IMG/VR virus record: IMGVR_UViG_3300045999_013174
Length of the DNA stretch: 64,000 nt
Reading direction: 5' to 3' (one strand)
DNA from: a virus
The notes under the pieces are model-generated. The model was given only the letters and a program-made list of their open reading frames with translations, was not told where the DNA came from and did no database searches. A program made the translations under genes and the position numbers. Shown here piece by piece: positions 4,320-63,957 of this stretch (its first letter is position 1; each line of letters opens with the position of its first letter).

Positions 4320-4701
4320 TCTTCAGAAAAGCAAGCTCAGAAAGGTGGAGTACATCGCCCTTGACAACTCAACAAAAGTTGGTTGGTTTCATTGCTTTGT
4401 CGTAAGGAAGGGGGATTACGTGGGATACTCCAAAGGCGCGATGGTTGAGGCTGCTAATGGGAAGCTTATAATTGTAAAGGTTGGTGAATTTAGGTTTGTA
4501 GACCCGCCTGTTCGTAAGCATAGAAGGCTTATTTTTGTGAACGATAAAGGAGCCACTGAGGTTGCTTTTTTTCATGTGTGGATAAGGCGTAAGGGTGTCT
4601 ATGTCGGTATAGACACCTTTGCCCTTATTGAGAAAAAGAGCGGCGAGCTTCTTGTCAGGCCTTACAACGAGATAACATTTATTGACACAGAATCATCATG
4701 A
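4309..4701 (+). CDS. hypothetical protein
   Basis: ORF track gives 4255..4701 (TTG start). An in-frame ATG at 4309 (ATGGCCGTTAG) overlaps the terL stop and is the more plausible start. Confidence 0.4.
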   Translation: MAVSLQKSKLRKVEYIALDNSTKVGWFHCFVVRKGDYVGYSKGAMVEAANGKLIIVKVGEFRFVDPPVRKHRRLIFVNDKGATEVAFFHVWIRRKGVYVGIDTFALIEKKSGELLVRPYNEITFIDTESS

Positions 4702-5171
4702 CAGAACAAGCACAGAAAATTTACATTGGATGCGACCCCGGTCTTTCGGGCGGGTTTGTTGTCCTTTCTGAGACCGGAGCCGTTATCGAGGTCTTTAAGA
4801 CCCCTGAGACAATTCAGGCGTTTGCCGAATCGCTCGGGAAATATGGCGACCCTGAAAAATATGTAGTCACCTTGGTAAAAGAACGAGTGCACTCTATGCC
4901 AAAAAACGGGGCTAAGTCCAACTTCACTTTTGGTTATACTATAGGGGTATTGGAGTCTGCTATCTCGTTTTATCGCATTCGTCATTTTGACATTACGCCT
5001 CAGACCTGGATGAAGTATTATATGATGAAGAAAGACCCTTCAGAAACGGACACCGCTTGGAAAAACCGCCTCAAGGCCCGAGCAATGGGCTTGTTCCCTC
5101 AGTCAAAGATTGCGCTTTGGAATTCCGATGCTTTCCTTATCGCGGAGTACGCGAGGCAGGTTTACAGATAA
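4698..5171 (+). CDS. RuvC-like Holliday junction resolvase
   Basis: N-terminal IYIGCDPGLSGGFVV matches the RuvC catalytic-Asp motif (GIDPG...G). Mid-protein acidic residue and C-terminal NSDAFLIAEYA (D..D..) match the RuvC fold pattern. Confidence 0.7.
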   Translation: MTEQAQKIYIGCDPGLSGGFVVLSETGAVIEVFKTPETIQAFAESLGKYGDPEKYVVTLVKERVHSMPKNGAKSNFTFGYTIGVLESAISFYRIRHFDITPQTWMKYYMMKKDPSETDTAWKNRLKARAMGLFPQSKIALWNSDAFLIAEYARQVYR

Positions 5172-9973: not shown

Positions 9974-11026
9974 ATGGACTCATTAAAGCCCACATATCAA
10001 ATCATCAACTCTCTCGCAGCAACTGCGGGAGATTTGGTTGTGAATGACAAAAACCTTGTCATTGGCCCAACCGCCAACCAAAGTCCTGTGATTAATTTGT
10101 CTCAGGATTGTAAACTCACCCGTATTTACTCTGTAAAAGAGACCCCAGCCGTATTCACTTACACCCCTGGCACTCTTGCTGCAAACACCAGGTACGGGTT
10201 TACGCTCATGCAAGTAATTGACGGCATGACCAAAGTTACTGTTGTTGAGTTCAACGCTGTAACTGCCCCTGGCTCAGCTACAATTGTTTGCGACGCGCTT
10301 CGTACAGTGCTTGCTAAATACGTAGCCAACGGGCGTGTTAAGGTTGTTGGTTCAGGAACCGCTACTGTTATTGTAACCGGTGCCGCTGGGTTCCCGTTGT
10401 TTAGTATGGCAGCTCCGCAAGGAGGAACTTCTGCCGAGACCCTTGCAACCATTGCTCTGAACGCGACACCTGGAACAGCGGTTGCTCAGTCATCAGGAGT
10501 TGTTACGGTTACCGCCGCCTCTGCCCATGGTCTTTCTACCGGAACCTTGGTTAGCTTAAGCACCGTGACAGGTATGACGTTTACCCGTAATGGCGTAACA
10601 ACAACCGCCGCTATCGACAACGCTCGCATCCATGTAGCCTCGTCTACCACCTTCACCCTTACCGGTGTGGTTGGCTCAGGCACCAACACTGGAACGTCCG
10701 TTCTTACTGTTAAGCCGTCTGAGGCTGCGGGTTCTTACAGCTTAGTTCTTGCTGAGACTGAGAATCAGGGTGCAACCCTTGCTCCTGTGTCGGGCCGCCA
10801 ATACTCAAAATACATTTTTGAGTACGCGAATCCTGTATCTTCTCTAAACAGCATTGCTCGTTTCCAGGAAGGAACTCACATCTTGTTTGTAGATGACTTG
10901 TTTGATTCTGCAACTCCAACCAATTTCACAAACTTCAACAACCGCGTAACGCAGATTGTGGGAGGCTTGAATTCGGGAGGAAACGTAGACGCAGAGCTGT
11001 TGTCTATTCCAAGCGTAAACAACTAA
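9974..11026 (+). CDS. Gly/Thr/Ala/Val-rich structural protein (capsid decoration or Ig-like protein, putative)
   Basis: 350 aa with repetitive T/G/V/A beta-rich composition. Immediately followed by a strong intrinsic terminator at 11043-11069. Confidence 0.35.
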   Translation: MDSLKPTYQIINSLAATAGDLVVNDKNLVIGPTANQSPVINLSQDCKLTRIYSVKETPAVFTYTPGTLAANTRYGFTLMQVIDGMTKVTVVEFNAVTAPGSATIVCDALRTVLAKYVANGRVKVVGSGTATVIVTGAAGFPLFSMAAPQGGTSAETLATIALNATPGTAVAQSSGVVTVTAASAHGLSTGTLVSLSTVTGMTFTRNGVTTTAAIDNARIHVASSTTFTLTGVVGSGTNTGTSVLTVKPSEAAGSYSLVLAETENQGATLAPVSGRQYSKYIFEYANPVSSLNSIARFQEGTHILFVDDLFDSATPTNFTNFNNRVTQIVGGLNSGGNVDAELLSIPSVNN

Positions 11027-14994: not shown

Positions 14995-17900
14995 ATGCCT
15001 GAAGTAAAACTGCAAGGGTTTGTTGGTATTAATTCTGACGATGAGTATTTGCTTGTCCCGCAGCCTGACACGACGTTGGGTCAGAATATTTCAATACAGA
15101 CAGATGTGCAAAGGGAGGGAGGGAGTGTAAAACCCAGGCTTGGAGACCTTTTTAAGTGCGAGATTTCTCCGGTGTCCCCGAGCTCAAAGGTTTATGAAAT
15201 AAGAACAAGCTCTTCTTCTGTTCATCTTAAGATTGTTACTCCAGCTCAGCAGTTTGTCCTTGCTGAGGCATCTGCCACGGGCCCGTTTGCTTTGCAGTTG
15301 GTCGTTGATGAGCTTTCTTTTCTGACTAACCAATACCCTTCGTTAGTAGGGAGCTCGTCTTATGTCTTGTTTGATGTCGAATACTTGATTGATAACCAGG
15401 GGCCATATATTCGGATTTCTCTCCCTGCTTTTGTAGGGCAGGGCGGTATTGCGACAGAGAACCCGAATCGCTATTTTGATTATGATGTCGTTGCTGGGAA
15501 TGATGAAGCATATAGTATTGTCTGTACAAGTGACAATATTTACCCGTCTATGGGTGGAGACCTTCGGGTTATAGGCAGTGTGGACCATCTTGGTAACACA
15601 TTTGTTTTTTCGACAACAGAAGACCGCCGTCCGTCTTCTATAAAAGCTCAGAGTGTAACTTATGTCTCCGCCTATTTTGTCGGGCCTAATATCGTGGCTT
15701 CTCAAACGATTGTAGAGTTGCCCGACCATGGGTTATCTGATTTTGATGCTGTTTCGATTGCTGTTTCAGATAATCGTTTTTACTCAGGCACCTATTCTGT
15801 TACGGTTATTGACCCTGACCGGTTTTATTTGAATGGATATCCGTATACTGTTCAGAATAATGGTCCGATAGCATTCCAGTCTACTGATTGTGTGGTTGTG
15901 TATAACCCAATAGCGATTGGGCAGATTGGTGTTTTGTTTGTTGATGTTTCGGGGCAGGAGCAGTATATTCCTCTTTTAACTTCCCCTGAGCTTAATTTCA
16001 GAACGTATCATCAGATTGATGTCGACGCAGAGGCTTTCCTAAATAAGATTGCTCTTTATTTCACTGACTTTAATAACGACCCTCGTGTGTTTTATTATGC
16101 CGGGGATTTTGTTGAGAACGGGGCTCTTGAGTTTATTAATCCTCAGAATCCGTATAAATATGGGACTATTGCTCAGCAGACCCGGTTGGTCAGCGCTCCA
16201 CAATCTTTGACAGTTCGTTTTGTTGAGCAATTGCAAACCGGAGGCACATTGTTTGCCGGGAATAAGCGATATGTAGCAAGGGGTGTTTCTGCGGACCTTA
16301 CTCCCGGGTTTTGGAGCGAGGCTACTGGCGTTGTTCCTGTTTATACGGCTTCGACAATTGTTTCGCCTCGTAAAATAAAGGGCAATACAACTGCTACTCA
16401 AACCGAGAAGGTTAATGTTATTGAAGTATCGGGAATTGACACCTCGATTTACTTTTTTGTGGAGATTGGTGTTATTGAATATCTCGATTCAGGATATGAG
16501 GCGGTGTTACTCAATCGTGTGGCCTTAAATGGCCGCTCTTCGCTTTTGTATTATCATGACGGTAAAGAAACCGAGCGTCTTGTTTTGCCGGCCCAAGAGT
16601 TTAATATTGACGACCGGAGTGTAAAAAAGGCACTCAATGTGTGTATTCTTGATAATAGGCTTCTGCTCTCTAATGTTGAATTTCGTTCTGAGCGAGGGCT
16701 TGAAGCTGTTCTTGATACTGTAAAATACCGGCTCAAACACTTTGCCCTTCCGAAGCAGGGGCGGGAGCTGGGGCAGTTTTATTTTGATGCGTCAGGGCTT
16801 GATTTTGCCGAGTACCAAAAGCCTGAGAATGTGAGCAAATACATTGGGTACATGCCCAATGAGACTTATTTGTTCGCTGCTCGTTTTGTGTTTAAGAACG
16901 GGTCTAAGTCAAAGCCTGTCCCGTTCTGTACTGTTAAGTTTGACACTGAGTCGACTTCTGCGGATGGTCGTCGTCTTGAGGGGTTGCCTTCTTATGATAC
17001 AATTAGGGGGCACCAATACAATCCGGCTTCGCAATTATATGACAAGGGCGAAATTCTCATTAATCACATTGAGTTTTCAAGCTTCAATTTCAATGCAATA
17101 ATCGACGGCGTTCCGGCAAGGGATATTATTGAGCGTATTGAGATAATGAGAGCAGAGGTTGTGAATCCAACGGTGCTTGGGTGCGGTCTTGCCGTACTTG
17201 CCATAAGGGCAGGTGCAGAAAGTCTTGCAAACACAACTTATCCTGTTTACAGGCCAACTCCTTTTGTTGGAGTTCCGACGGGTTTTGGCCCTCTGTTCTT
17301 TGACCCTGGGTATATGCAGATAGGCCTGGTAAGGCAACCTGATGTTGCATCGTTATACATCCCTGATTTTTTATACACAGGGGCCGATATTTCCTCTGTT
17401 GGCGTTGGTGCAAAGCTGGTTGTTTTTGGTAGTCATGACTATAACGCTCATAAGGATTCTTATGTACAAGCATTCGGCGCTCCCCCGACTGCGTTCCCTT
17501 ATGGAGGTTATATTCATTATGGCGGAGATTCAGGTTGGGGTGGAGCTGGGTTCTCTCCAGTGGAGTACGGTATTGATGAGTTTGGTAGTATAGCTGACGA
17601 TGGGTTTAAGATTTTCGCTGAAGGCTCTCAGTTCCCGTTTATTTTTAGGAACAGGCATTTTATACTGCCGAATAATAACAGGTGGACTCGCAACTTGACA
17701 GTTCGTCTTGATTCTCCTGTACTAACAGAATCTGACCATCAGTGGCAAGAGCCTGATACTCAAGGCGGTGAAACCTTCCTTGCGGGAGACAGGGGTCTTC
17801 GCTATGTTCAGATATACCGGCCAAATCCGGACCAATATAACGACATTGACATCACAAGCGCTATTTACACCCTTGCGAGTATTTCTCCATCTGACACATT

Positions 17901-19494
17901 CGTTGATGTGTTCGGGGGTGATTGTATGTATCAAAGGACGACGTTGAAACTGATGTCTTGTAATGCGCCAAATGTACCGCTAAATACTGGAGCTCCGGTG
18001 TGTGTTGACTTTTATAGCCATAACAGAATAAACGTCCAGCTTAGGGGTAGTGACGAAAATATCGACGCGGCTTACCCAATGGAGTTTGATACAATAAGCC
18101 AGTGGATGCTTCATCCGTTTTTTGACGAAATTGCTTATAGCCGAGCATACACCCCAAGGCAAGAGGCGCAGTCGAAGTTGGTTTTTAACCCAAATCTTCC
18201 GGATGACACAAAGCAGCCAACGACGATAGTTTACTCCCCGGTAAAGACCCGCGGCTCTGTCCAGGACTCGTATCGGCAGTTTTCTTATGCTGACTTCACT
18301 TCCCTTGACACGACATTTGGCCCTATTGTGTTTATGAGGCCCTTTAACGGGGAACTAATTACGCTTCAGGAGCGAAGGGCTCAGCGACAGTTTTTTAATA
18401 CAAGAGGTGTTTTAACTACCTCAGACGGAGCTACAGCCCTCATTGGCGATGGCGCTGCTTTTTATAGAGACGGCTCTACTCTTAGTTCGTTTGGTTGTCG
18501 CCATAAGTGGTCGGTAGTTGTCGGCCGGTCTTTTGGCGGGAATGATGTTTGGTATTGGTATGACGATGTTAATCGTGTTATTTGCCGGTTTGGTGCAGAT
18601 GGTCTTGTTCCTATTTCGTCAAGGGCAAAGTTTAGGACGGAAATCCGTTCGCTGACAGAGTTGGCCTCTGATTCTTTCACTCCTGCAGACGTTTTTGGCA
18701 TTAGCGGGGTTTGGGATGAGGCTTTATCTGAGGTCGTTTGGAGTTTTAAGCTTGCAAGAGGTTATCGGGGGCATTGGACCCCCGGCCTAAACGTGAAGCA
18801 GGGTGAGCTTTATAGCGTAAGGGGTCGGAACTACCTCGGTGTATTTGAGGACGTGCCTGTTCTTTACAGGGCTATTTTTAGTCATGAGGCCTCCTCGTTA
18901 AACGGTCCTGATTCAGACGACCCAGCATGGCAAGAAATTCCATACGGAGACCCTTCGTATATGAAGTTCTTCGGCTTGGTGTTTTCTGAGTCTCAAAATC
19001 GCTTTATATCAGTTGACGAAATCTACCCGGCTATCTTTATAGCCAACAACAGAAATGTTTACTACCCAAGAGCCAAGGCTCCATACGGACTTATTTATAA
19101 GCGAAACGCTGGAGAGCCGTTGGTGTTTTATGACTACTTTGGTGACAGAAAAACTGTTTTTGGTGCTGTAGAGAGCGTGTTCAATATCGACGCCAATATC
19201 CAAAAGAAGGCAGCGGCTTTAAGGGTTAATTGCACTCTTGTACCCCATAAGATTGAAGTTAGGACAGAACTTAATCAAACATTCATTCTTGCTGAAGACT
19301 TTAAGGGTCGCCTTAATCAGTGGGATTCGCCAGTTAATAAGGACTCTCAGGACGAGCAGTCGCGAAAGCAGGGAGAGGGTGGAATATATGGCACTTATGT
19401 CCGGGTAAAGTTTATCTTTGCACCTGAGCAGCATCAGCGTTTAATCAACATGGTTCTTAAATTTAGACCTGTGTCAAGAATGTATACAACATGA
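14995..19494 (+). CDS. large virion protein (tail tube/nozzle-like, putative)
   Basis: 1,499-aa uninterrupted ORF in the structural block. Beta-rich, many Gly/Tyr/Asn. Position corresponds to tail tubular proteins in T7-like order. Confidence 0.5.
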   Translation: MPEVKLQGFVGINSDDEYLLVPQPDTTLGQNISIQTDVQREGGSVKPRLGDLFKCEISPVSPSSKVYEIRTSSSSVHLKIVTPAQQFVLAEASATGPFALQLVVDELSFLTNQYPSLVGSSSYVLFDVEYLIDNQGPYIRISLPAFVGQGGIATENPNRYFDYDVVAGNDEAYSIVCTSDNIYPSMGGDLRVIGSVDHLGNTFVFSTTEDRRPSSIKAQSVTYVSAYFVGPNIVASQTIVELPDHGLSDFDAVSIAVSDNRFYSGTYSVTVIDPDRFYLNGYPYTVQNNGPIAFQSTDCVVVYNPIAIGQIGVLFVDVSGQEQYIPLLTSPELNFRTYHQIDVDAEAFLNKIALYFTDFNNDPRVFYYAGDFVENGALEFINPQNPYKYGTIAQQTRLVSAPQSLTVRFVEQLQTGGTLFAGNKRYVARGVSADLTPGFWSEATGVVPVYTASTIVSPRKIKGNTTATQTEKVNVIEVSGIDTSIYFFVEIGVIEYLDSGYEAVLLNRVALNGRSSLLYYHDGKETERLVLPAQEFNIDDRSVKKALNVCILDNRLLLSNVEFRSERGLEAVLDTVKYRLKHFALPKQGRELGQFYFDASGLDFAEYQKPENVSKYIGYMPNETYLFAARFVFKNGSKSKPVPFCTVKFDTESTSADGRRLEGLPSYDTIRGHQYNPASQLYDKGEILINHIEFSSFNFNAIIDGVPARDIIERIEIMRAEVVNPTVLGCGLAVLAIRAGAESLANTTYPVYRPTPFVGVPTGFGPLFFDPGYMQIGLVRQPDVASLYIPDFLYTGADISSVGVGAKLVVFGSHDYNAHKDSYVQAFGAPPTAFPYGGYIHYGGDSGWGGAGFSPVEYGIDEFGSIADDGFKIFAEGSQFPFIFRNRHFILPNNNRWTRNLTVRLDSPVLTESDHQWQEPDTQGGETFLAGDRGLRYVQIYRPNPDQYNDIDITSAIYTLASISPSDTFVDVFGGDCMYQRTTLKLMSCNAPNVPLNTGAPVCVDFYSHNRINVQLRGSDENIDAAYPMEFDTISQWMLHPFFDEIAYSRAYTPRQEAQSKLVFNPNLPDDTKQPTTIVYSPVKTRGSVQDSYRQFSYADFTSLDTTFGPIVFMRPFNGELITLQERRAQRQFFNTRGVLTTSDGATALIGDGAAFYRDGSTLSSFGCRHKWSVVVGRSFGGNDVWYWYDDVNRVICRFGADGLVPISSRAKFRTEIRSLTELASDSFTPADVFGISGVWDEALSEVVWSFKLARGYRGHWTPGLNVKQGELYSVRGRNYLGVFEDVPVLYRAIFSHEASSLNGPDSDDPAWQEIPYGDPSYMKFFGLVFSESQNRFISVDEIYPAIFIANNRNVYYPRAKAPYGLIYKRNAGEPLVFYDYFGDRKTVFGAVESVFNIDANIQKKAAALRVNCTLVPHKIEVRTELNQTFILAEDFKGRLNQWDSPVNKDSQDEQSRKQGEGGIYGTYVRVKFIFAPEQHQRLINMVLKFRPVSRMYTT

Positions 19495-31000: not shown

Positions 31001-34000
31001 TTATGACCTCAATGAGAAGAACCGGCTTAACCCTGGCGGAACCCGGATGGTTTACCGCTTGCCGGGTAACAGGGTTATAAAAGTGATTGGCGATAACACC
31101 CAAGCTGGTCGGGTTCAGAATCTCGCAGAAGGAATTGAGGATTTTACGCCTATGGTTTACGAGTCCGGGCTGGACTATGTGATTGTAGAGGAGCTTCCTC
31201 CGCCTTCAAGCGCAAATTTCAAAAACTTCGCCTCTTGGCTTAGCAAGACAAAGGCTGAGGACTGGATAAAGAAGCCTGAAGCGTTCCGAGAAAAGCTTGC
31301 TGAGTTTGGTCTTGAGAAAATACTTGACAAAGGATATTCTCTTGCTTATGGAGATATTACTGCGATTGAGAATTGGGGAGAGCGCGACGGCAAGATTATG
31401 CTTGTCGATGCGGGAAGCCTTGTTGCCGGATACCAAGTGTCGGGCAGTCTTGATAAGGCAGAACAAGTTCTCGCAGAGAAGACTGTTGCGACCAAGGAGG
31501 TGTTGGCTACAGACGCTCCGAAGGCTACGGTTTTGTTCCAAGCTGCGGCCCCCTTGCCGCCTTCTCCATGGCAGAATCTTATTGCTACGAACCGCCAGGC
31601 TCACAAGGCGGTTGTCAAGATGACCAAGAAAATCATCAAGGCTAACGGGAAGGTCGCAAATGATGTTGCTAATATCCTTATCGACACAATAGCTCAGGGG
31701 TTACCTGATATGCCGCCAATGCCAAAAGACATAGCGTTTGATTATGTAATCAAGGGTATGTCTGAACTTGGCATTCAGCCTGATTATACAGGTATGGCGG
31801 TGCAGCCTGATGAGATTGAATTGAGTGTTGGAGACCTCAATGTAAAGACGGTTTTCACCCGGGTTCAGCAATCAAAGAAAGTTTCCGGCCGGCTCCGCCA
31901 GGCGCTTACCCGTGCGGGAAGGCTTTATGACGTAGAGAACCAAGGCCTCGCTTCTGAGCTTGCTAATGCTATTATTGAAGAGTATGGCCCAAGGGCTGCT
32001 ATGGCGATGGTTAAGGCCGGAATTATAAAAGGGGCGACAAGCTCATTTATTTACGGTGCCGTCATTGATAAAATGTCTTCTGAAGGCTCTAAATATTCAG
32101 AGATAGCAGAGGTTATAAATGACTTTGCGCTACATCAGCGTGAGCTTGGTCGCGGGATAGCCGCCCTTAACGAGGTTTATGTAAGAAGCCCACAGGGTCT
32201 GTATTACATGGCCCTCCACGCGATGAATCAAACAAATGCTGTAGCAACTGCCTCGGCTACCGGGGCGGCCACAGCTCTTTCCGGTCAGCTTGCTGCAGCC
32301 CAGCAATCCGCAGCGGCTACCGTGGCTACTAATATTGCTCGTGGCGCAACATCCGGAACCAGCAGGATATCAACCGACATTCCGGATTTGATAATCATGG
32401 GTCAGCAGGAGAAGATGAAAGCCTTGAAAAAAGAGGCGAATGATATCCTCCGTCAGCTCAAAGGGCTCGGCTCTCAACTTCCATTCGCGGCTCCTACAGG
32501 ACGAATCCAAGCCCTTCAATCGCTTGGCAAGCTCGACCTTGTTGTTTCCCTCGGTGCAAACTTTATCAAGAGGGGCAATGTTCAGTTTAGTATTTGGGCT
32601 GCGCGGTTTAAGAAGTCACTATCATCAGCAGGTATAACCTTTGACAAAGATGACTTGCAATACGTTTGGGAAACCGCCGAAGTTAAGAAGACTCTTCAAG
32701 ATACTCTTGATTCGGGCCTTGCTCCTCTCGACGGCCCAATCAGGGATTACCTTCGCTCTACCCAAACGAAGCTTGCTGCTATTGTGCGGAAGCGGGCTGC
32801 CGACCGGACGATAAGCCTTCAGAATTTGGCTGACGATATTGCAGCCTCTCTTGCTGTAGACCCTGTGGTTGCCAGCCGTCTCTCTGCCGCTATTCTTGCC
32901 GACATTGACAAGATGTCTAAGGCTATGCAGCAGAAAATTGTTGAGAAGTTTCATAAGAATCTTACTAAGAAATTCGGCGGCAACAAAGAGGCTGCCGAGG
33001 CTTCCTTAGCAGACTTGGTGAATCTTGTCAACATGAACCAGGCCAACCCGCATGACATCGCAGAGGCGATAAAATTTGCTTTTGGCGGTGTTTCTATGTC
33101 GGACTCTCAGTCGGACCAGTTTATCAAGCTTGCCGAGGATGTGTTCAAAACCCGGGAGGGCTCTCGAAATCGTCAGATTGCTCAGAAGCGCCTTGTTGAG
33201 TTTACCAACAGTTTATACAAAACCAAGTTTGGAGACTTGTTTTGGATTTTCTTTTACCCAAATCAGCTTGCCGGCATCAGTACGCAAGTGGTAAACACCA
33301 TTGGAAACTTCTACAACACTCTCGCTCAGATGCTCATTTATGCTCACACAGACATACGCAATGCTGTCCGTATGGGTCTTGGGACATCTTTGATTAATTC
33401 ATTGTTGGAGCTTTCTCAGCAGGTTGGCACAGGGCTGCAGAGCGCGAAGCTTGTAATGGAAACGGGTATCGCTGGCTCCGGGAATAAGTATGCAGACCTT
33501 AAAGCCGCCACTAAGAATTCAAAAACCATCGAGGATGACCTTGGTTATAAGATTCAGAGTTTTAGCGGGCTTTCTACAGCGGAGGTGTTCCCTGTTGCGG
33601 TACGAAACCTGTTTAACGGATTCATGCTGCTTAATCAAGCGTTCTTGAAGTATTTCCCGGTGAGGTTTATGACCGCTGTGGATAATGCCTTCTATCAGGC
33701 TACATACGAGAAGTCTATCCGCAGACAGTATATCAACGAGCTTTATGAGCAAGGGTTTCGTGGAAAAGCGTTACGCGATGCTGTATACGAAGCAATGCAC
33801 GGAACTGATACGGATGTTCAGACCGCTGCTCAGGAAGCGTATGCTGAAATGGTCGACGCGCAAATCCCATTCTTCGACAATCAGAAGCTTGCGGATTATA
33901 TCCTGGCGAAACAGCTTAGCGGTGAGATTAAGGCTGCTATAAATAGTGCTATTGGCGCGGGTTCTGGAACTTCTCCTTTGCCTCCTCTCGCCGAGCTTAT

Positions 34001-35819
34001 GAATATGCTCGGGTCAGAGACCACTGGGCCTCTAATGTCTGCTGCGTTAATACAGGCGGACCCGAGTATTTTGGCTGAGCGAAGCTTGTGGTCTACGGCC
34101 GCGAAGGTTGCCGTAAGGGAGATTATTCACTCCCGCTCGATTCCTGAACACATTGCCGACAGGGCTTCGCGCCAGTCGATGTATGTGACATTGAAAAATA
34201 CGCCCGAAGGGTTTCTTGGGGTTATTGCCGCCGTTACGTCGATGGCCGTAAATACATTCGCTCCGATTCGATTCCTGGTTCCGTATGTTAATGTCCCGTT
34301 CAATATCGCCAATATGTTCCTCGATTGGTTCCCGCTAACCTCTGTGCCCCGCGCAGCCGGCTTGTCGCTATCGAGGATGTTTGGACCAACGTTCCTGCAG
34401 CGATTTGGTGTTAAGCCATCATCGTATTCTGAGGGAACGGCGGTTCAGTATGGACTGGAATACGACCCTGTTATGCATCAGGAGCAAAAGGTCAGGGCTA
34501 TGTATAGTACCCTTATTGGTATCTCGACATTTGCATACTACGTCTCGAAAGCACTTGGGGATGATGAGGAGGAGGAAGGCCCGGCAATAACCGGAGGTCT
34601 CTTCAATGTGAGATATGACCGCGCCGGGAAGACCCAAAAGCCTTACACCATAAAGATATTTGGCGAGGAGTTCTCTTATGAGAACACGCCTTTATACCTC
34701 GTCCTTGCCTCGGTAGGCAACACGTGCGACATAATCCGTCAGCTTAAGGCTGAGGGTGCTGAGCAAGGTGGTGTGAGTTTCGATGCTTTAATAAGCAACT
34801 CGTTGACCTCAATGACTTACACAGCGTTGTCCTTGTTTGATGCCTTGCCTATCAGTGGCCTCGAGGGGATAATGGGGATTCTCTCTTCAAGGGAGAAGGG
34901 GGCTGCGTCCATGGGACTTAAAGAAAAGGCTCTTTTGAGAACAGCCCAGGGACTTATAAAATCCCTGCTTACTCCGGTTCCTATTGTGGGCAACAACTTT
35001 GTGAAGCAGCTTGAGCAATTTAATGACCCACGCAAGTACGTTAATGATGTGTACGACCCTGAGGTGTTTCTTGCGAGAGCAACTGGTCACGTATTGATAA
35101 ACACCCTGTCAGACGGGTCTCTTGTTATGAGAGATTATCTTGGACGCGAAGTTGTTCAATATCCTGGCGCAAGGAATATCAAGACTCTTGAGATTGCTGA
35201 GAAGTCCGACATTGACCGCTACATCTACTCTAAGCATCTGAATTTTATTCCGGTATCAAAGGATTCCGAGGTTGCGGTTATTGCTAAGGGGCCAAATGGT
35301 CGGGAATCCGGGACCCTTGTGAAGCTGACTGATGATGTTCAGCTTTTTAACGAAGCTTACACCGCCGGTGGTACTATTATGCGAAAGTATCTTGGTGAGT
35401 TTCTCCCTCTGCTGAAGTCGCTTAACGACACTCAGCTTGAGAGAGAGATTATCAACCAGGCGAATGAATGGCAGCGAAAGTATGTTATTGAAAAAATAGA
35501 AGACGCCGAGTTTTCCAAAACGAAAGAAGGCTTTAAGGCCTCTTCGATTCCTGACGATATTTCTGTTGTGTTCTCCGGCTGGGGGCGCAACCGCGAATAT
35601 GCCGATGGGGTTACCCGGATTTCCGAAAATGGAAGTATCCTAAATATCCTTCGGGATATTAATAAATCACCGGTTTCCGCAAGGGAATCTAAGCTCAGGG
35701 ATTTGCGCGCTGTTCTCAATGTTAAGACCGAAAGCGAGAGGGTTAGGGATAAGATTCGGGAAGAGGCAGAACGTCGAAACTTAAATGTCAATAATTTGGA
35801 CATCGTAGTTCCTGAATAA
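22026..35819 (+). CDS. giant multidomain virion protein (4,597 aa), putative ejected polyvalent protein
   Basis: Single stop-free 13.8-kb frame. Coiled-coil N-terminal quarter. Pro/Ala linkers, including (PA)n at 26395-26487. A small domain repeated three times. HExxH...E zincin motif at 30060. Gly-loop/VDAG kinase-like segment 30920-31450. Multiple hydrophobic helices 33240-34900. Confidence 0.8.
   Translation: [4597 protein letters not shown]
26395..26487 (+). repeat. coding (Pro-Ala)n low-complexity tract inside the giant gene
   Basis: Translates to [31 protein letters not shown], a linker. A second P/A-rich linker lies at about 30590-30683. Confidence 0.7.
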
Positions 35820-54061: not shown

Positions 54062-54544
54062 TTATAAACAATCCGAACTTGGCTCGGGTATTATCCAGTC
54101 CATATTAAGTTCATAATACTGACGGATAGCCTCGAGCCTTTCTCCGAATTCTTTGGTGTTGTAGAGCGTCGTTGAGGTTGGGATATTAATCGTCTCTCCG
54201 GTCGCTCCATTGAAGATTGTCACACAGAAAAAATTCGCCTTATTGAACTCATGCATCTGCTGCTTTGATAGTTGTAGCCCGTGCCTTTCCTTGTGCGCTT
54301 TAATCTGCTCTGCGACAACAACGCCATAGTAATAGGCGTTTTGAGCAAGGGAGCGCTTATCGCTATCAAAAACGCTAAGTTCCATCACCAATGTAGAGCC
54401 TTTGAATTGCGATACGAATTCATTAAAAGCCTTTCTGTTGATGATTTTAGCAACCCCCGTGTCGCTATCGACACGGAGGAAGAATCTGTTCTGAAAGCTT
54501 GACAGCTCCTTAATCGACCTCATTGGCATCAGGCTTAAGCTCAA
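54062..54544 (-). CDS. NinB/Orf-like recombination mediator
   Basis: 160 aa. SDKRSLAQNAYYYGVV resembles the lambda Orf (NinB) core ERNRSLDQNRKLWACLGDV, from memory of the family. Confidence 0.45.
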   Translation of the reverse strand: MSLSLMPMRSIKELSSFQNRFFLRVDSDTGVAKIINRKAFNEFVSQFKGSTLVMELSVFDSDKRSLAQNAYYYGVVVAEQIKAHKERHGLQLSKQQMHEFNKANFFCVTIFNGATGETINIPTSTTLYNTKEFGERLEAIRQYYELNMDWIIPEPSSDCL

Positions 54545-55310
54545 GCTGGCGGGCTGGAAGTTTGTTCAAGATATTAATCTTTCGCTCAGCGAAAACCTCG
54601 CTACGAACTTCTGAATAGAGGCTGTTTGAGAGAATGTTCTTAACAGTGCTACCGTACCACGTTTTGTTCCTCTTGGAAGGAATACCCCTACGGGAAAGTT
54701 CGGTGGCGATATACCCCTGCCCGCGCCCATTAAGGGACATAGAGATTATCTCTTTGATGATTTTAATCTCCCCTTCGTGGCGAACAAGGTTACCATCGGC
54801 GTCTGAGACGAATCCATAAGGGTCTTTGCTGTACTTTTTGCGTGACCGCTTAAGCTGCGCCATAGCATCGGAGGTTCGCTCTGAAATACGGGCTGATTCA
54901 AATACGGCAAAGGAGAGCATGAGCGTAAAAAGTAGCCGGCCCGTAGAGGATTGCGTATTGACAATGTTGCCGGCGACATCCGTTGTGTAAAGGCTAATGC
55001 CTTTTGAAGACCATTCATCGACAGTTGTCAAGCCGTCAACATCATTACGAAAAACGCGGTCAACCCGAAGTCCTATAACCCCTACAACATCGGGGTTTTC
55101 GCTAAGATATTCAAGCATCTTGCCGCCCTCGGGCCTCTCTTTAAGAGGTTTGCGCCCGGAAACATCGCTGTCGGCAAAGATTTTTACAGGGAAAACATTA
55201 AGGAACTGGCAAAAGCTGTAAATCTTTTGGTGCTGAACCTCTGTGGATAGGTCTTGGTCGTCAGTGCTTACCCGTATGTAAGCAACAACTTTTTTGATTG
55301 GCTCAATCAT
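54510..55310 (-). CDS. serine recombinase (resolvase/invertase family; possible integrase)
   Basis: N-terminal VVAYIRVSTDDQ catalytic-serine motif, then VIGLRVDRVFRN. 266 aa, shorter than typical large serine integrases. Confidence 0.8.
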   Translation of the reverse strand: MIEPIKKVVAYIRVSTDDQDLSTEVQHQKIYSFCQFLNVFPVKIFADSDVSGRKPLKERPEGGKMLEYLSENPDVVGVIGLRVDRVFRNDVDGLTTVDEWSSKGISLYTTDVAGNIVNTQSSTGRLLFTLMLSFAVFESARISERTSDAMAQLKRSRKKYSKDPYGFVSDADGNLVRHEGEIKIIKEIISMSLNGRGQGYIATELSRRGIPSKRNKTWYGSTVKNILSNSLYSEVRSEVFAERKINILNKLPARQLELKPDANEVD

Positions 55311-56020: not shown

Positions 56021-56641
56021 TTATTTAGGGTTAAGAAGCTTGTTTGTCGTAGCGGAACAATAAAGCCCGCCGAAGAATTGATTTATAGCCTTATTAAAAA
56101 CATCCGCACCCTCTATACCCCACCCGGGGGAATTGTCGCGCTTGAGGGACTGGTAGGCTTTGTCAAAAAGGGTTATACAGGAGCGTAGCTTCATACAATC
56201 GACAAAGCCGAACATATCCAATAGCTGCTTGGAAATGTCTTTGTTTGTAAAGGTTCTGAGCATATAGGACAATAAGTCCACAAGCGCCTCCCTCAATTCA
56301 TCATCGAGAAGGTACTCTTTTGCTTCCTTCATGCCTTTAATGCCGTAGAAGCGGGATATTCTGCTTTTGCCGAGACCTCTTATCTGCGGGTACATAAACC
56401 ACATATAGCACATGCTCTTTTTCCCTGCTGCAATATCAGCTTTTGCAAATAAATGCATACCCGCGGAGGCAAGCTTAAAGCGGTCAAGCCCTACCCCTGC
56501 AACGGTGTTGAATACGTGCCTTGCTGCTTCGTAATAATCGGAGCCGCGAAGTTCCTGGGCGCCAATATACGCCTTGATGAAGACCTCAAGGTCGAGGTCG
56601 TTTTCCCTCATTAGTTTGAGGGCAAGTTCTGATTTTTCCAT
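56021..56641 (-). CDS. hypothetical protein with conserved WFMYPQIRGLGKS motif
   Basis: 206-aa ORF. The motif is reminiscent of a DUF-type family (recalled, unverified). Confidence 0.4.
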   Translation of the reverse strand: MEKSELALKLMRENDLDLEVFIKAYIGAQELRGSDYYEAARHVFNTVAGVGLDRFKLASAGMHLFAKADIAAGKKSMCYMWFMYPQIRGLGKSRISRFYGIKGMKEAKEYLLDDELREALVDLLSYMLRTFTNKDISKQLLDMFGFVDCMKLRSCITLFDKAYQSLKRDNSPGWGIEGADVFNKAINQFFGGLYCSATTNKLLNPK

Positions 56642-56664
56642 TTTTGCTCATTTTAAGGGTTTGT

Positions 56665-56746
56665 GGTCAGGACAGGACTCGAACCTGCATCAGAGGTGGC
56701 AGAGTTTACTACATCACCTTGCTTTATCCAATTACGCCACCTGACC
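56665..56746 (-). tRNA. tRNA-like gene with aberrant anticodon arm (identity undetermined)
   Basis: Minus-strand sequence GGTCAGG..AGGTG[16 nt]CACCT..GCAGGTTCGAGTCCTGT CCTGACC A. Perfect 7-bp acceptor stem, canonical GGTTCGAGTCC T-arm and a 5-bp anticodon stem, but a 16-nt anticodon loop instead of 7. Confidence 0.45.
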
Positions 56747-60089: not shown

Positions 60090-60109
60090 GGTAAAAGTGT
60101 AAAGGTTTG

Positions 60110-60182
60110 TAGCTTCGGCAGGAATCGAACCTGCATCTTCCGTTTAGGAAACGGACATTCTATCCATTGAACCACGAAGCCT
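60110..60182 (-). tRNA. tRNA-Arg (anticodon CCU)
   Basis: Minus strand folds by hand into a cloverleaf: AGCTTCG TG GTTC AATGGATA GAAT G TCCGT TTCCTAA ACGGA AGAT GCAGG TTCGATT CCTGC CGAAGCT A. 7-bp acceptor, D-arm, perfect 5-bp anticodon stem, loop U-U-CCU-A-A. CCA not encoded. Confidence 0.75.
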
Positions 60183-60191
60183 GAGTTTAAC

Positions 60192-60716
60192 TCAAAAGAC
60201 TGGCGTGAACACTTGTCCATTCGGAAACAACGAAGGGGTATCGCACCCGTCAGAAGGAGAGTCGCCACCCCATGAAGGGGTGGCTTTCTCAATAATCGCC
60301 ATAATGTACAGCAAATAAGAAATGCGATACACCGAAGCATTTCGCTCTATCTCCCAATTAAAACCGCAGGTTTTGGTTAAGCCTTCGATGATGGTCTGCT
60401 GTGGCTTGTCCTTCGTTAAAGAAGAAAGATGGGCGTTGTAAAACCACTCAAGGAGGCCTTGCTGAACAAGCTTAATCATAACCATACGCCGCTGATTTTC
60501 TTTGATAACAGAAAGGAACCTACTTTGAATCGAGGCTTCAGTTACAACGGTTACATTATCCCAATTTCGTTGAACATCATCATCTTTAACCAGGAGCCAT
60601 TCGAGCGATGGGTATAGGCTTAAGATGTGCGCTCTTAAATTAGCGCGAGACCCATCATTGGTCTTAAACATGGATACGGGAATCCTGTACCCTTCGGGCA
60701 AAAAGTTTTTTCTCAT
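60192..60716 (-). CDS. hypothetical protein
   Basis: 174-aa ORF between the GATase gene and tRNA-Arg. Confidence 0.4.
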   Translation of the reverse strand: MRKNFLPEGYRIPVSMFKTNDGSRANLRAHILSLYPSLEWLLVKDDDVQRNWDNVTVVTEASIQSRFLSVIKENQRRMVMIKLVQQGLLEWFYNAHLSSLTKDKPQQTIIEGLTKTCGFNWEIERNASVYRISYLLYIMAIIEKATPSWGGDSPSDGCDTPSLFPNGQVFTPVF

Positions 60717-60777
60717 AGATTGAAAAGATTAAGCCCTCCCCATAACAGGGAGGGCGAGGTTAAACATCAGGTTGGAA

Positions 60778-61923
60778 TCAGGACACCACGGGGTTGTTTA
60801 CACAACAAACCCGCTCATAGTTATCCATCGCTGTTCGCAAGATTTCAGAATCAAGCTTGTAAAAAGTATCGTTACCCTTGTTGAACTCGGTCAGGACGTG
60901 ACCTAATAGGTCTTTGTCATAGATAGCAAAGGGCAAAATTTTCGCCGAGGATAACTCTTTAGAGAAATCCTTGAGACAGGTAACAGTCTTGTCCCCAATG
61001 GTAACATTGACAGACTTAAAGTTGCTCGACTGCTTGTTGTCGGGCATGAAGTAAGTAACGCCATCAGCAATCAACTCCGCTGCTGTGCCGTAATACTCCG
61101 CTGAGCTTAAAGCTTCGGTTGCCCAGTTTTCGTATGATTCGATAACTGTTGAACCCATGATGGCAGTGTAAGCGTAGCTGCTTTTAGACATAAAGCCTAT
61201 ATCATGAAGCTTATTTTCAACCTTTATGGATAAGCCTATAACCTTGTCCTGAGTTTTGTCGGCTCCTGAAGTAGCGCCCCAATCATCCCACGCTTTTCCG
61301 TGAGATTTGCTATCGGTGCTGTATGCATTATTAACCGTGCTGCGGTCAACCATCTTACCGCCGTAGTTAATCTTAGAGCTATAGCTCTTGTATGAGGTGT
61401 TGGAGTACCAATTGTCCTGATGCCAATGACCGTCACGCTCATTCACGATAGACCATTTATGGTCTACATCGAGCATCACAAACTTAGACCAGCCTCCGAT
61501 TTCCTCAAGGAAATTGTGCACACCTTCCGAGTGTTGCCATCCATCGGGAAGCTTTGCCAAGAACTCCTCGCAAAGGAAGCGAGTATCGCTGCGGTGGTCA
61601 CGGTAAGAGTGACCTTTAAGGTCAACCATGCCGTTGTGGATAAAGGCAACCTTGTCGTTTATAACGAAGGGATGAAGGTTGTCCTTGGTAATAGTCCCGT
61701 GGGTTGAGATACGGAAGTGTAACAGGAACGGAACGTCAGGGTTCTTTTTGCGGGCTGCTTTGTAAGCTTTATAAAAAGCTGTCGCGCCCTTATCTGTTTT
61801 GAACACGTTGATTTTTGAGCCATCGCTGTAAGCGAAGCCGGCACCGTGATAATTGTTCTCGTAAGAGTTGAAGATATACTCACGCTTGATTGTGTTTTTG
61901 ATGTTGAGGATTGCAATACACAT
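60778..61923 (-). CDS. class-II glutamine amidotransferase / Ntn-hydrolase family protein
   Basis: Starts Met-Cys (MCIAIL..), the nucleophile position of Ntn/GATase-II enzymes. ..LHFRISTHGTITKDNLHPFV.. and ..AFIHNGMVD.. match the conserved H-x-R-x-(A/S)T and HNG motifs of the family. Confidence 0.6.
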   Translation of the reverse strand: MCIAILNIKNTIKREYIFNSYENNYHGAGFAYSDGSKINVFKTDKGATAFYKAYKAARKKNPDVPFLLHFRISTHGTITKDNLHPFVINDKVAFIHNGMVDLKGHSYRDHRSDTRFLCEEFLAKLPDGWQHSEGVHNFLEEIGGWSKFVMLDVDHKWSIVNERDGHWHQDNWYSNTSYKSYSSKINYGGKMVDRSTVNNAYSTDSKSHGKAWDDWGATSGADKTQDKVIGLSIKVENKLHDIGFMSKSSYAYTAIMGSTVIESYENWATEALSSAEYYGTAAELIADGVTYFMPDNKQSSNFKSVNVTIGDKTVTCLKDFSKELSSAKILPFAIYDKDLLGHVLTEFNKGNDTFYKLDSEILRTAMDNYERVCCVNNPVVS

Positions 61924-61978
61924 AAGAAAAAAGGGATTAAAGGGTTAAAAAGGAATTGAAAGTTGAAGCTGCTGCACA

Positions 61979-63865
61979 TTACTGTGCAGTAGCCATTGAT
62001 TTTGGAAGCTGCAATACAACGAAGTTGTACTTACGAGAGTTCTCGATAAAGTTCATAGCGGTCTTAAGCATAAACCGCTGCATACCTTTCTCTCCATTGC
62101 GACCCTCTACGGTACGGTAGTAAGACCGAAGGTGAGCAGATAATGTACTCTTGCGATTCGCTATAAGGCGAAGAACCTCAATCTCAGAAGCACCGTAATA
62201 CTTGGTCAAGGCAAGCTGCATTAAACGAACGCGCCACTTAAGGTCAGCCACATTGCGAACAGCATCAAAGATTCTAATCTCAAGAATCTTATCGTTCTTG
62301 GTGTACGCTGAGGAATACTTGGTAGGAGACTCTGTAAGCATCGTCAAGGACTTAGCTTCGCAGTAGGAATTACGCATACGCTCAGGATAAAGGGCGTAAA
62401 TCAGCGGGAGGAAGCCCCGTAGAGCCTGTAATAATTCACGGGAACTAACCCCAACCATTGACACATTAAAGTGTCCACCGCAGCTGTCTTCGTAATCTGC
62501 GTTCACAAGGTTCCTGACGATGCTGTTTTCCATGTCCTTATTAAAAGCGGTCAGGTCAACAAGGTCATATACAGGGCTTATAGCCTCAAATCCACCTTCG
62601 TTTAAGCTGCCGTCGTGCTCTTTACCCCAGCCCGTTTCCTTAAGAACGTAGTCGAAAGTGTTTTCCTCCTTAACGTAATTGTCCTCTTTCTCTACCTCTA
62701 CGCCAAAGCTGATTGTTGTGCTACCTGAGGTCTTATAGACCGTATCGAGTTCGCCATAGCTGGCAACCCACCTACGGGGAGGACACCAATCGTCACCATC
62801 GTATTCCAAGCCGTTGTCTTCAGCAATACTTGCTGAAATATAATACTCGTCACGATATTCAGAGAAGACGTAGTCTTCGCTGTCCATGAAGTACCCCTGT
62901 CCTCCCGACGAGTTTACAACTCCGTACTTAAGTACGTCAGAATCCTGATAGCCGTATCCTCCCGAGTACCTTCCGTTAAGGGGGACAAGGTTATACCTTT
63001 GTTTTGCCCTGTAAGGTATTGGCAAGTCATAGTTCTCAGTAACGTCGTTAACGACGCGCTCGTCATCGGCAACGAAACCTGATTCTGTTTGGATGGCGTG
63101 CTCCATAAGAGCAATTTGCCCGGCATACTCAGAATCATCGCACAGGGTAACCGTTTCATCAGAAACATGGCAGCAAGGTGTGCCGCCGTTAGAAGTTATG
63201 TACATCGCTTCGCTGAGGTATACTACCTCTTCTGCGGGAACGGATTCGCCTTGGCGTTTGCCGTCAGAGAGCATTACAAGCTCTACGTTTTCTTCTGCTT
63301 TCATTGCTGTAAAGGGATTTGGGTTTGTTATAGGGTTATTGATTCCGAAATGTTCCAGCATATTAAATGCTGTAGCAAGGCTCGATATGGCATTCTGATA
63401 GCGCGGCGCAAAGCTTGCCAGCATTACATTATGATTAGCAAACTCCCAAAAAGAACCGTCAGTAAAATCCCTGAGGATAACCTCAGGTTGATTTATCGCA
63501 TCGCGGACAAGCTGTATCCGTGACGCTGAATCACGGCAAAAATCGAAGTTTGCAATAAAATTATAAGCCGTGTAGAAAATATTAAGATTTTCAGGGCATA
63601 CGTCTTCTGAGTTAATTAGAAACTCAGCAGCCTCAATTTCATCGCGCCTCGAATTTAACATATACCAAAACCCCCGTCCTTGCGGAGTTGTCGACCATGT
63701 TAAGGCATAGTCAATCATACGGCGGAAGTCGCCATAATAACTACCGACATGACATTGTACCTTCTGCTTTAACAGGAGGTTCATAAAGCTAAACGACTCT
63801 TCAGAGGTTTGCTTTCTTTTAATGTACTCTACAAGTACATCGGTTATTAATTTTCGTTTTCTCAT
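61979..63865 (-). CDS. putative glutamine-synthetase-like amidoligase (Amidoligase_2-like), N-terminally extended
   Basis: 628 aa. C-terminal half contains ..EHDGSLNEGGFEAISPV.. and ..SCGGHFNVSM.. resembling the Glu-rich and G-x-H-v-H motifs of the GS-like amidoligase family (pattern recall). Immediately upstream of the GATase-II gene. Confidence 0.4.
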   Translation of the reverse strand: MRKRKLITDVLVEYIKRKQTSEESFSFMNLLLKQKVQCHVGSYYGDFRRMIDYALTWSTTPQGRGFWYMLNSRRDEIEAAEFLINSEDVCPENLNIFYTAYNFIANFDFCRDSASRIQLVRDAINQPEVILRDFTDGSFWEFANHNVMLASFAPRYQNAISSLATAFNMLEHFGINNPITNPNPFTAMKAEENVELVMLSDGKRQGESVPAEEVVYLSEAMYITSNGGTPCCHVSDETVTLCDDSEYAGQIALMEHAIQTESGFVADDERVVNDVTENYDLPIPYRAKQRYNLVPLNGRYSGGYGYQDSDVLKYGVVNSSGGQGYFMDSEDYVFSEYRDEYYISASIAEDNGLEYDGDDWCPPRRWVASYGELDTVYKTSGSTTISFGVEVEKEDNYVKEENTFDYVLKETGWGKEHDGSLNEGGFEAISPVYDLVDLTAFNKDMENSIVRNLVNADYEDSCGGHFNVSMVGVSSRELLQALRGFLPLIYALYPERMRNSYCEAKSLTMLTESPTKYSSAYTKNDKILEIRIFDAVRNVADLKWRVRLMQLALTKYYGASEIEVLRLIANRKSTLSAHLRSYYRTVEGRNGEKGMQRFMLKTAMNFIENSRKYNFVVLQLPKSMATAQ

Positions 63866-63891
63866 TTGTAGAGGGTTTGGTTTGGGGCTTG

Positions 63892-63957
63892 TCTGAGAAT
63901 CTCTACTCTCTCTAATCCTGAGAATCTCCCCTCGAAAGAAATCGGGGAGTTCTCAGG
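63892..63957. repeat. direct and inverted repeat cluster upstream of the amidoligase gene
   Basis: TCTGAGAATCTC (63892-63903) repeated as CCTGAGAATCTCCCC (63917-63931), which is palindromic with GGGGAGTTCTCAGG (63944-63957). Confidence 0.4.

Follow-up and report, generated by a model that had tools for sequence, protein, structure and literature searches.

A two-gene amidoligase and glutamine amidotransferase module with a clade-specific third gene in a crAss-like phage genome

The locus and its conserved gene pair

We analyzed a stretch of 64,000 nt (the window) from the viral genome IMGVR_UViG_3300045999_013174, about 7 kb of which lies outside the window. At 60192-63865, three consecutive open reading frames (ORFs) on the minus strand encode proteins of 628, 381 and 174 amino acids (aa), as had been stated in an earlier prediction made from the sequence alone (the original prediction). 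The first is a predicted amidoligase with the fold of glutamine synthetase (GS), here called the ligase; the second is a class-II glutamine amidotransferase (GATase)-like protein of the N-terminal nucleophile (Ntn) type; and the third, which we call ORF174, belongs to an unannotated family. The ligase and GATase genes lie on the same strand with a gap of 55 nt. We are highly confident that these two genes constitute a virus-restricted module, consisting of a predicted GS-fold, ATP-dependent carboxylate-amine ligase and a free-standing, class-II GATase-like amidohydrolase with a gamma-glutamyl pocket. The genes and domains of the locus are as follows; pLDDT is the predicted local distance difference test score of the structural models.

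61979-63865, minus strand: ORF of the 628-aa ligase
63296-63865, minus strand: orphan helical N-terminal domain of the ligase (aa 1 to about 190), with a W-x-x-TPQG-x-x-FW motif and low pLDDT
62756-63283, minus strand: beta-rich middle region of the ligase (aa about 195-370), with predicted strands and pLDDT of 50-94 rising toward the catalytic domain
61979-62755, minus strand: GS-like amidoligase catalytic domain (aa about 371-628), assigned from an AlphaFold2 (AF2) model, Foldseek and invariant residues
60778-61923, minus strand: ORF of the 381-aa GATase, which begins MCIAIL
61339-61923, minus strand: class-II (Ntn) GATase-like domain (aa 1-195), with Cys2 as the nucleophile
60814-61260, minus strand: C-terminal alpha/beta domain of the GATase (aa about 222-370), pLDDT 67-94
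60192-60716, minus strand: ORF174, of an unannotated family, directly downstream of the long GATase

The catalytic domain of the ligase was recognized through its fold and through conserved catalytic residues. The AF2 model was confident over aa 270-628, with pLDDT mostly above 90 in the catalytic domain, and Foldseek matched it in the PDB to GS, GmaS, YbdK and PafA/Dop (best E = 5e-5; PafA/Dop, E of about 2e-3 to 8e-2), with naphthylamine-GS also among the structural matches. In BFVD, the model matched dozens of phage proteins named 'amidoligase enzyme', with E-values down to 3e-17, including those of the crAss-like phages phi14:2 and cr108_1, Pseudomonas phage tf and Salinivibrio phage CW02. 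Sequence comparison gave fainter signals: PHROG 7469 'amidoligase' matched aa 380-503 weakly (E = 2e-3), NCBIfam gave no match to the 628-aa protein, and a search of PDB sequences with the ligase profile found nothing, the PDB match having come from the fold search only. Among 34 ligase homologues, one carries PF12224 as a precomputed annotation, and this family was matched by 9 of the 33 homologues scanned singly (best E = 3.2e-5). From this transitive and structural evidence, we conclude that the ligase is a divergent branch of the Amidoligase_2 (PF12224) superfamily. The GS/amidoligase fold, on which the original prediction had been staked beforehand, was thus found.

Alignment of 33 ligase sequences revealed invariant residues at E390, E392, D418, S420, E427, H465, R496, E529, R531 and R545. 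We take these E-x-E, D-x-S, E, H, R and E-x-R elements to be the metal, ATP and phosphate ligands of GS, by textbook correspondence rather than residue-level superposition. E390 and E392 fall within the motif FGVEVEKED, which bears out the Glu-rich motif originally noted in this protein. The G-x-H-x-H motif noted alongside it is not present in the 628-aa ligase; the conserved histidine motif is instead C-G-G-H-(F/I)-N, which reads C-G-G-H-F-N in the window protein.

The GATase likewise carries the Met-Cys start and the Ntn/GATase-II motifs attributed to it: among 55 homologues, C2 is nearly invariant, and R71, N97-G98 and S112-D113-T114 are invariant. The GATase profile matched the glutaminase domain of GlmS in the PDB (7.6e-6), with the block HFRISTHG...HPF...HNG aligning to GlmS, and Foldseek matched the GATase model to GlmS, PurF and the Ntn hydrolase EgtC. 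Scores against individual hidden Markov models (HMMs) fell below the curated cut-offs (GATase_4, 18.8 bits against 23; GATase_6, 19 against 27), and a weak match to a glmS model was also seen; many of the homologues carry PF13230 or PF13522 as precomputed annotations. In class-II GATases such as GlmS and EgtC, an Arg and an Asp hold the free alpha-carboxyl and alpha-amino groups of the glutamyl moiety. The substrate of the window protein should therefore be glutamine or a gamma-glutamyl amide.

We found the ligase and GATase genes next to each other in five metagenomic loci and in four close relatives, and a scan of IMG/VR gave 80 further loci (related metagenomic and viral loci are labelled L001-L095). 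A ligase was called in 78 loci, and HMM searches placed the GATase beside it, on the same strand, in 74 of them; in the remaining four, the contig breaks off on the side in question. Adjacency therefore holds in every related locus with both flanks available (about 83 loci), and the synteny on which the original prediction also depended was found in all of these. Most gaps between the two genes measure -54 to +174 nt, and the ligase comes first in all but six loci. Wider gaps are occupied by a small ORF, a frameshifted ligase or GIY-YIG homing endonucleases. In two loci, GIY-YIG homing-endonuclease genes sit exactly between ligase and GATase (L059 6691-7323 and L064 6945-7535), and Pseudomonas phage UFV-P2 has an HNH endonuclease at the same spot (PMC3890496).

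All-against-all clustering of the neighbouring genes in 88 loci showed that only the ligase (87) and the GATase (83) are universal families, the next family being found in 20 loci; the recurrent neighbours of the pair are replication and recombination genes. In a pattern scan of 185,579 bacterial and archaeal species, with one genome for each, the ligase subfamily was present on 2 contigs of metagenome-assembled genomes, compared with 140 viral contigs, and we therefore regard the subfamily as essentially viral. A cultured carrier of the pair is the OM43 phage MEP402 (gp06-gp07). Some viral loci (L025, L029, L030, L038 and L039) hold two ligase paralogues, with the second amidoligase about 3 kb away, and the ligase ORFs number 101 in 87 loci. 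We also considered whether the pair belongs to a known defence or counter-defence family and rejected this idea, as PADLOC defence-system models matched neither the ligase nor the GATase, nor ORF174, nor the 244-aa paralogue described below.

Accessory domains and the third gene

The ligase had been described as roughly twice the usual length and as carrying an extra N-terminal domain. The first description is partly apt: members of the subfamily range from 367 to 727 aa, and most of them are already extended at the N-terminus. The extension itself is present, but it comprises two regions rather than one domain. The beta-rich middle region is shared, being alignable in most members of the subfamily, with Y370 invariant; tblastn matches in related loci frequently begin at ligase residues 175-340. 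The helical region at the extreme N-terminus is an orphan, with no Pfam match and only 3 weak non-self matches, none annotated, in an exhaustive HMMER search of 1.84 billion representative proteins. This domain is paralogous to a 244-aa ORF found just upstream of the ligase in relatives (BLASTP, 2e-9). Having been gained by the ligase, it may direct the enzyme to its target. Apart from this, we observed that the W-x-x-TPQG-x-x-FW motif is repeated four times in two unannotated 400-aa proteins (P0123 and P0124).

The GATase also carries an additional domain. Its C-terminal alpha/beta domain is present in homologues of 366-437 aa (query coverage 90-98%), which we refer to as the long-GATase clade, and is absent from the forms of about 210-340 aa. 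A Foldseek search of the PDB gave no convincing counterpart of this domain.

The third gene, ORF174, had been proposed as a candidate third component. It matched nothing in Pfam, PHROG, NCBIfam or PADLOC, and a word-indexed homologue search returned a single cluster of 96% identity. Homology within its family was built from the ORFs that lie directly after the GATase, which gave positional homologues in L001, L002 and L006-L011; at L001, L002, L010 and L011, the ORF immediately following the long GATase resembles ORF174 in its N-terminal pattern. Leave-one-out HMMs of the family were mutual top matches, weakly, among 4,885 ORFs. At the independent test loci L093-L095, the post-GATase ORF matched the ORF174 HMM with E = 1.6e-21, 3.3e-11 and 1.2e-4, and these ORFs were the top non-training matches of the HMM, whereas no score better than 0.019 was obtained at short-GATase loci. 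The ORF174 family and the C-terminal domain of the GATase co-occur in 11 of 11 long-GATase loci, which represent approximately eight independent lineages. These data support the conclusion that the ORF174 family is a third component specific to the long-GATase clade. The earlier proposal thus stands for this clade and does not extend beyond it to the short-form loci, from which the gene is absent. The ORF174-family protein always follows the long hydrolase, and it is probably an adaptor, a regulator or a substrate.

Flanking elements and genome setting

Further elements flank or interrupt the module:

60733-60755, minus strand: terminator-like hairpin that lies after the GATase stop and before the start of ORF174
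60109-60181, minus strand: tRNA-Arg(CCT), which adjoins the module and is not part of it
63862-64000, minus strand: 3' end of an upstream ORF, which extends beyond the window edge and overlaps the start of the ligase gene (ATGA)
63904-63970, minus strand: long hairpin with a stem of about 25 bp, which ends about 40 nt upstream of the ligase start, in the 3' end of the upstream ORF

The full homologue of the upstream ORF is the 244-aa ORF at L006 7329-8063, and the frame in the window matches its C-terminus. The original prediction had placed an operator-like cluster of inverted repeats in this region. The inverted repeat exists, with arms at 63904-63924 and 63950-63970 that are 90% complementary and a predicted RNA folding free energy (dG) of -40.7 kcal/mol (z = -6.3). 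Read from the window edge, the upstream frame stays open as far as a stop codon overlapping the start codon of the ligase, which places the repeat inside coding sequence. We found that the hairpin is an 83-nt element (window 63889-63972) that occurs in two copies in each close relative, 1.2 kb apart, one between small early ORFs and the other at the end of the 244-aa ORF (L006 6743-6825 and 7957-8039, respectively). The element has no match in Rfam, no exact copy in the IMG/VR scan and none in the other 87 loci. We therefore rejected the operator cluster in favor of one long hairpin within coding sequence, duplicated in relatives. This element could be a site of RNA processing or attenuation, or a small mobile repeat.

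The tRNA-Arg gene, which had been grouped with the module, lies just outside the start of the module as originally drawn. Of 60 related loci that we scanned, 12 carry a tRNA gene at a distance of up to about 6 kb from the pair; these tRNAs are assorted and lie at varying distances, and tRNA-Arg(CCT) recurs only in the close relative L006. We thus rejected tRNA-Arg as a member of the module, its association being limited to close relatives. A separate observation concerns an 84-nt tRNA, which is tRNA-Tyr(GTA) in the window (56663-56746, minus strand) and tRNA-Cys(GCA) in L006 (15123-15206) and L008 (about 10785-10870). The two differ at the middle base of the anticodon and at one base 3 nt downstream and are otherwise identical; to judge from the sequences, they look like one tRNA scaffold whose anticodon has been switched.

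The window phage is crAss-like: its virion genes include a muzzle protein (PF25731, 1e-31) and a weak match to tail ring protein 1. Direct DNA similarity revealed no near relative among deposited phages, and tblastn with the ligase gave one uncultured phage as its sole match. Metagenomic relatives are 69-82 kb in size, with a GATase that is 91% identical. In these relatives, the operon of the module begins at a divergent intergenic region, with small ORFs before the module and recombination genes after it. The module is part of a leftward (minus-strand) operon that also carries recombination genes, and it is promoter-proximal in relatives.

Several side observations were made in these regions. 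The divergent intergenic region of L006, between the Prim-Pol operon and the module operon, contains three tandem 23-nt repeats (TTTTATTTTTAGACAAGCCTAAA) and a fourth, degenerate copy (4633-4707 and 5052-5080), which are candidate iterons or promoter elements. The leftward operon of the window also encodes a DUF1810 protein (E = 3e-29; 56021-56641, minus strand) and a serine recombinase/resolvase (54510-55310, minus strand); the presence of a serine recombinase in the operon of a crAss-like phage hints at a capacity for integration or inversion. Elsewhere in the window, a 4597-aa ORF without a Pfam match (22026-35819, plus strand) lies downstream of the 1499-aa protein that resembles the crAss muzzle (14995-19494), and it may encode a giant virion or cargo protein.

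Relation to known systems and proposed chemistry

The pairing of an amidoligase with a GATase has been described computationally in phiEco32, LUZ24-like, RIO-1/PSA-HP1, Marvin and OM43 phages; these papers credit the idea of a role in the cell wall or in superinfection exclusion to Iyer et al. 2009 and speak of a function still to be explored (PMC10580990, PMC3890496, PMC5498523, PMC11318856, PMC11945000). Two of them cite Iyer et al. 2009 and Hardies et al. 2013 for a phage 'peptidoglycan-modification' cassette (PMC5498523, PMC11945000). We found no experimental characterization of an amidoligase-GATase pair in the literature, and published accounts (PMC10580990, PMC5498523, PMC11945000) bear out the original statement of a pairing that had been noted by computation but for which no product had been identified.

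In its full form, the system is a five-gene cassette; the crAss-like phage phi14:2 carries it, and there the amidoligase (g041) and the GATase (g040) are neighbours. As in the cassettes of phiEco32, LUZ24-like phages, RIO-1/PSA-HP1 and phi14:2, the window phage has an amidoligase beside a class-II GATase among early or replication genes, and the ligases share the same fold. Unlike these phages, the window phage is without the ATP-grasp, COOH-NH2 ligase and gamma-glutamyl cyclotransferase genes, all of which are present in phi14:2. None of the three was found among the window proteins or among the recurrent neighbours in the 80 IMG/VR loci, and the part of the relatives that corresponds to the 7 kb beyond the window holds only a Prim-Pol gene and small ORFs. 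The sequences of phi14:2 and the window phage are so diverged that profile-to-sequence comparison was not significant. Relative to the cassette, the window phage adds the C-terminal domain of the GATase, the ORF174-family gene and the orphan N-terminal domain of the ligase.

Another parallel is the stand-alone, two-gene pair of OM43 phages MEP401/MEP402 and of mycobacteriophage Marvin (PMC10580990). In the OM43 phages, as in the window, the ligase is directly upstream of the GATase near the start of the early region; the OM43 genes overlap. The N-terminal domains of the OM43 and window GATases are 33-35% identical, and the MEP402 ligase is related to that of the window (hhalign probability 90%, E = 1.6e-6). 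MEP402, which belongs to the Zobellviridae rather than to the crAss-like phages, differs from the window phage in its short GATase (291 aa), its lack of an ORF174-family gene and the different N-terminus of its ligase.

By analogy with characterized enzymes, we tentatively propose that the pair forms and cleaves a gamma-glutamyl-type amide bond. In this model, the ligase would phosphorylate the gamma-carboxylate of a glutamate-type substrate and join it to the amine of a host or metabolite acceptor, yielding a gamma-glutamyl-type amide, and the Cys2 hydrolase would cleave the same kind of bond, or glutamine itself. Together, the two would install and remove, or turn over, a gamma-glutamyl handle, in parallel with EgtA/EgtC, GmaS/N-methylglutamate synthase and PuuA/PuuD. 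We favor gamma-glutamyl chemistry because GS-fold ligases activate the glutamyl gamma-carboxylate (as do, to our knowledge, all that have been characterized), because the pocket of the hydrolase fits a gamma-glutamyl group, and because pairs of GS-fold and Ntn enzymes are known; we also counted in its favor that other phages pair amidoligases with gamma-glutamyl cyclotransferase. In the EgtA/EgtC (ergothioneine) and GmaS/N-methylglutamate synthase systems, the gamma-glutamyl amide made by a GS-fold gamma-glutamyl ligase is likewise cleaved at a later step by a class-II Ntn amidohydrolase; the window GATase had EgtC, and the window ligase GmaS, among its structural matches. Those systems differ from the window pair in being cellular pathways with further enzymes between the two steps, and there is no orthology at the sequence level.

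Several points weigh against this proposal. Its mechanism is argued by analogy, with no substrate, product or target known for any member, and a Pfam scan of the 628-aa ligase at E <= 1 gave no match. A ligase and a hydrolase acting on the same bond, with no intervening enzyme, would run a futile cycle unless they were separated in time, space or substrate. In addition, GATase and gamma-glutamyl cyclotransferase coexist in five-gene cassettes (phi14:2 and Xanthomonas phage DES1), which makes it harder to argue that the GATase simply serves as an alternative 'eraser'. The terminator-like hairpin separating GATase from ORF174 also counts against it; in a consensus scan, this hairpin has a 10-bp stem with 7 G-C pairs followed by a T-rich tail, and co-transcription of the third gene may therefore be partial. 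Finally, tight one-to-one adjacency is also a hallmark of the subunits of glutaminase/synthase pairs.

This last point leads to the main rival, a two-subunit, glutamine-dependent amidotransferase in which the Cys2 protein would hydrolyse free glutamine and hand the ammonia to the ligase, which in turn would phosphorylate a target carboxylate and amidate it. By its sequence, the GATase could be either a true amidotransferase that feeds a synthase partner or a plain hydrolase. We consider this explanation possible but on the whole unlikely. Its logic is that of MurT/GatD, although the folds of MurT (Mur-ligase) and of GatD, a glutaminase of class I (triad), are unrelated to those of the window pair. 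The strict co-occurrence, the adjacency and the frequent overlap of start and stop codons are those expected of glutaminase and synthase subunits; the pocket residues suit free glutamine, and the best structural matches, GlmS and PurF, are true glutaminase domains; and the variable C-terminal domain of the GATase could serve in docking. However, we know of no GS-fold ligase that takes ammonia from a partner glutaminase, and a class-II glutaminase domain is as a rule part of the same polypeptide as its synthase, not a separate protein. No ligase-GATase fusion was seen among the 83 or so loci, although the ligase-first order would bury Cys1 in a fusion anyway. MurT/GatD does resemble the window pair as a two-gene operon encoding an ATP-dependent, carboxylate-activating enzyme and a glutaminase (PMC3267633). 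The candidate target, D-isoglutamate or diaminopimelate of peptidoglycan precursors, would be compatible with the cell-wall hypothesis of the literature (PMC5498523, PMC11945000), but a cell-wall target is without supporting evidence.

The remaining explanations differ in the substrate that they invoke. The pair might act as an auxiliary metabolic module on free glutamine, glutamate or small amines such as polyamines, redirecting host nitrogen during infection; several phage-genome papers place it among auxiliary metabolic genes (PMC10580990), the module is common in aquatic phages, and GS-fold and glutaminase chemistry suits small molecules, as the structural matches to GmaS and naphthylamine-GS illustrate. 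We nonetheless judge this highly improbable: the subfamily is nearly absent from cellular genomes, unlike typical host-derived auxiliary metabolic genes, making and also hydrolysing glutamine would be futile, and the long, variable orphan extensions on both proteins, together with a dedicated third protein, suggest recognition of a macromolecule. Highly improbable too, in our estimate, is a role in modifying phage DNA or nucleotides, in which the pair would decorate a hypermodified base with an amino-acid-type group, or amidate such a group, and so evade restriction. Amidoligase and amidotransferase Pfam domains do occur next to thymidine-hypermodification genes in viral contigs (PMC8989533), and in many loci the module lies among replication and recombination genes. 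However, Pfam and PHROG searches of the window proteins revealed no deoxyuridine monophosphate (dUMP) hydroxymethylase, 5-hydroxymethyldeoxyuridine (5-hmdU) kinase (5-HMUDK), aGPT-Pplase, TET/JBP, pyridoxal phosphate (PLP) or radical S-adenosylmethionine (radical-SAM) enzyme, and base-hypermodification enzymes were likewise absent from the recurrent neighbours in the 80 viral loci, where a single ThyX was seen. The ligase-GATase pair is also self-contained, and we set aside a hypermodification role as having no contextual support in the window or in neighbouring genes.

Similarly, we give very little credence to a pupylation-like tagging system, in which a glutamine or glutamyl end, deamidated or trimmed by the hydrolase, would be linked by the ligase through its glutamyl carboxylate to a lysine of a target protein, and the ORF174-family protein or the 244-aa paralogue would be tag, adaptor or target. 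The structural matches of the ligase include PafA and Dop, GS-fold enzymes that couple a glutamyl gamma-carboxylate to an amine and carry out its deamidation or cleavage; in the long-GATase clade, the position of a dedicated small protein is conserved; and the N-terminal domain of the ligase has a free-standing paralogue encoded just upstream. Yet both enzymes of pupylation have the GS fold, whereas the partner in the window is an Ntn hydrolase and no Pup-like tag is evident. The C-termini of the ORF174 family are poorly conserved, with no conserved terminal Gln or Glu, and the third gene is missing from most two-gene loci. The pocket of the hydrolase, moreover, needs free alpha groups that a C-terminal residue of a protein does not usually offer. 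A broader analogy with pupylation, in which the ligase, the long GATase and the ORF174 protein would form a self-contained, three-protein glutamyl-conjugation system, also seems to us unlikely, and clearly more so than the amidotransferase explanation; in such a system, the glutamyl-type group would go to a host protein chosen by the orphan N-terminal domain, or to the ORF174 protein.

Turnover of a gamma-glutamyl amide thus remains the reading that we prefer for the pair. Whatever its chemistry, the module in the window is a two-gene reduction of a known phage module, supplemented by a third partner that is specific to its clade and by orphan accessory domains. Annotations of the amidoligase-GATase pair in phage genomes go back to 2009 and are widespread, and our finding by itself changes no current picture; the ORF174 partner family is newly recognized here. 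What the divergent, virus-restricted subfamily does is to reduce the system to two obligatorily linked genes, or three in one clade. For testing, cultured carriers are at hand: the pair is found in the OM43 phage MEP402 and the full cassette in Cellulophaga phage phi14:2. The reduced pair provides the smallest test object for the question of what amidoligase-GATase enzymes make.

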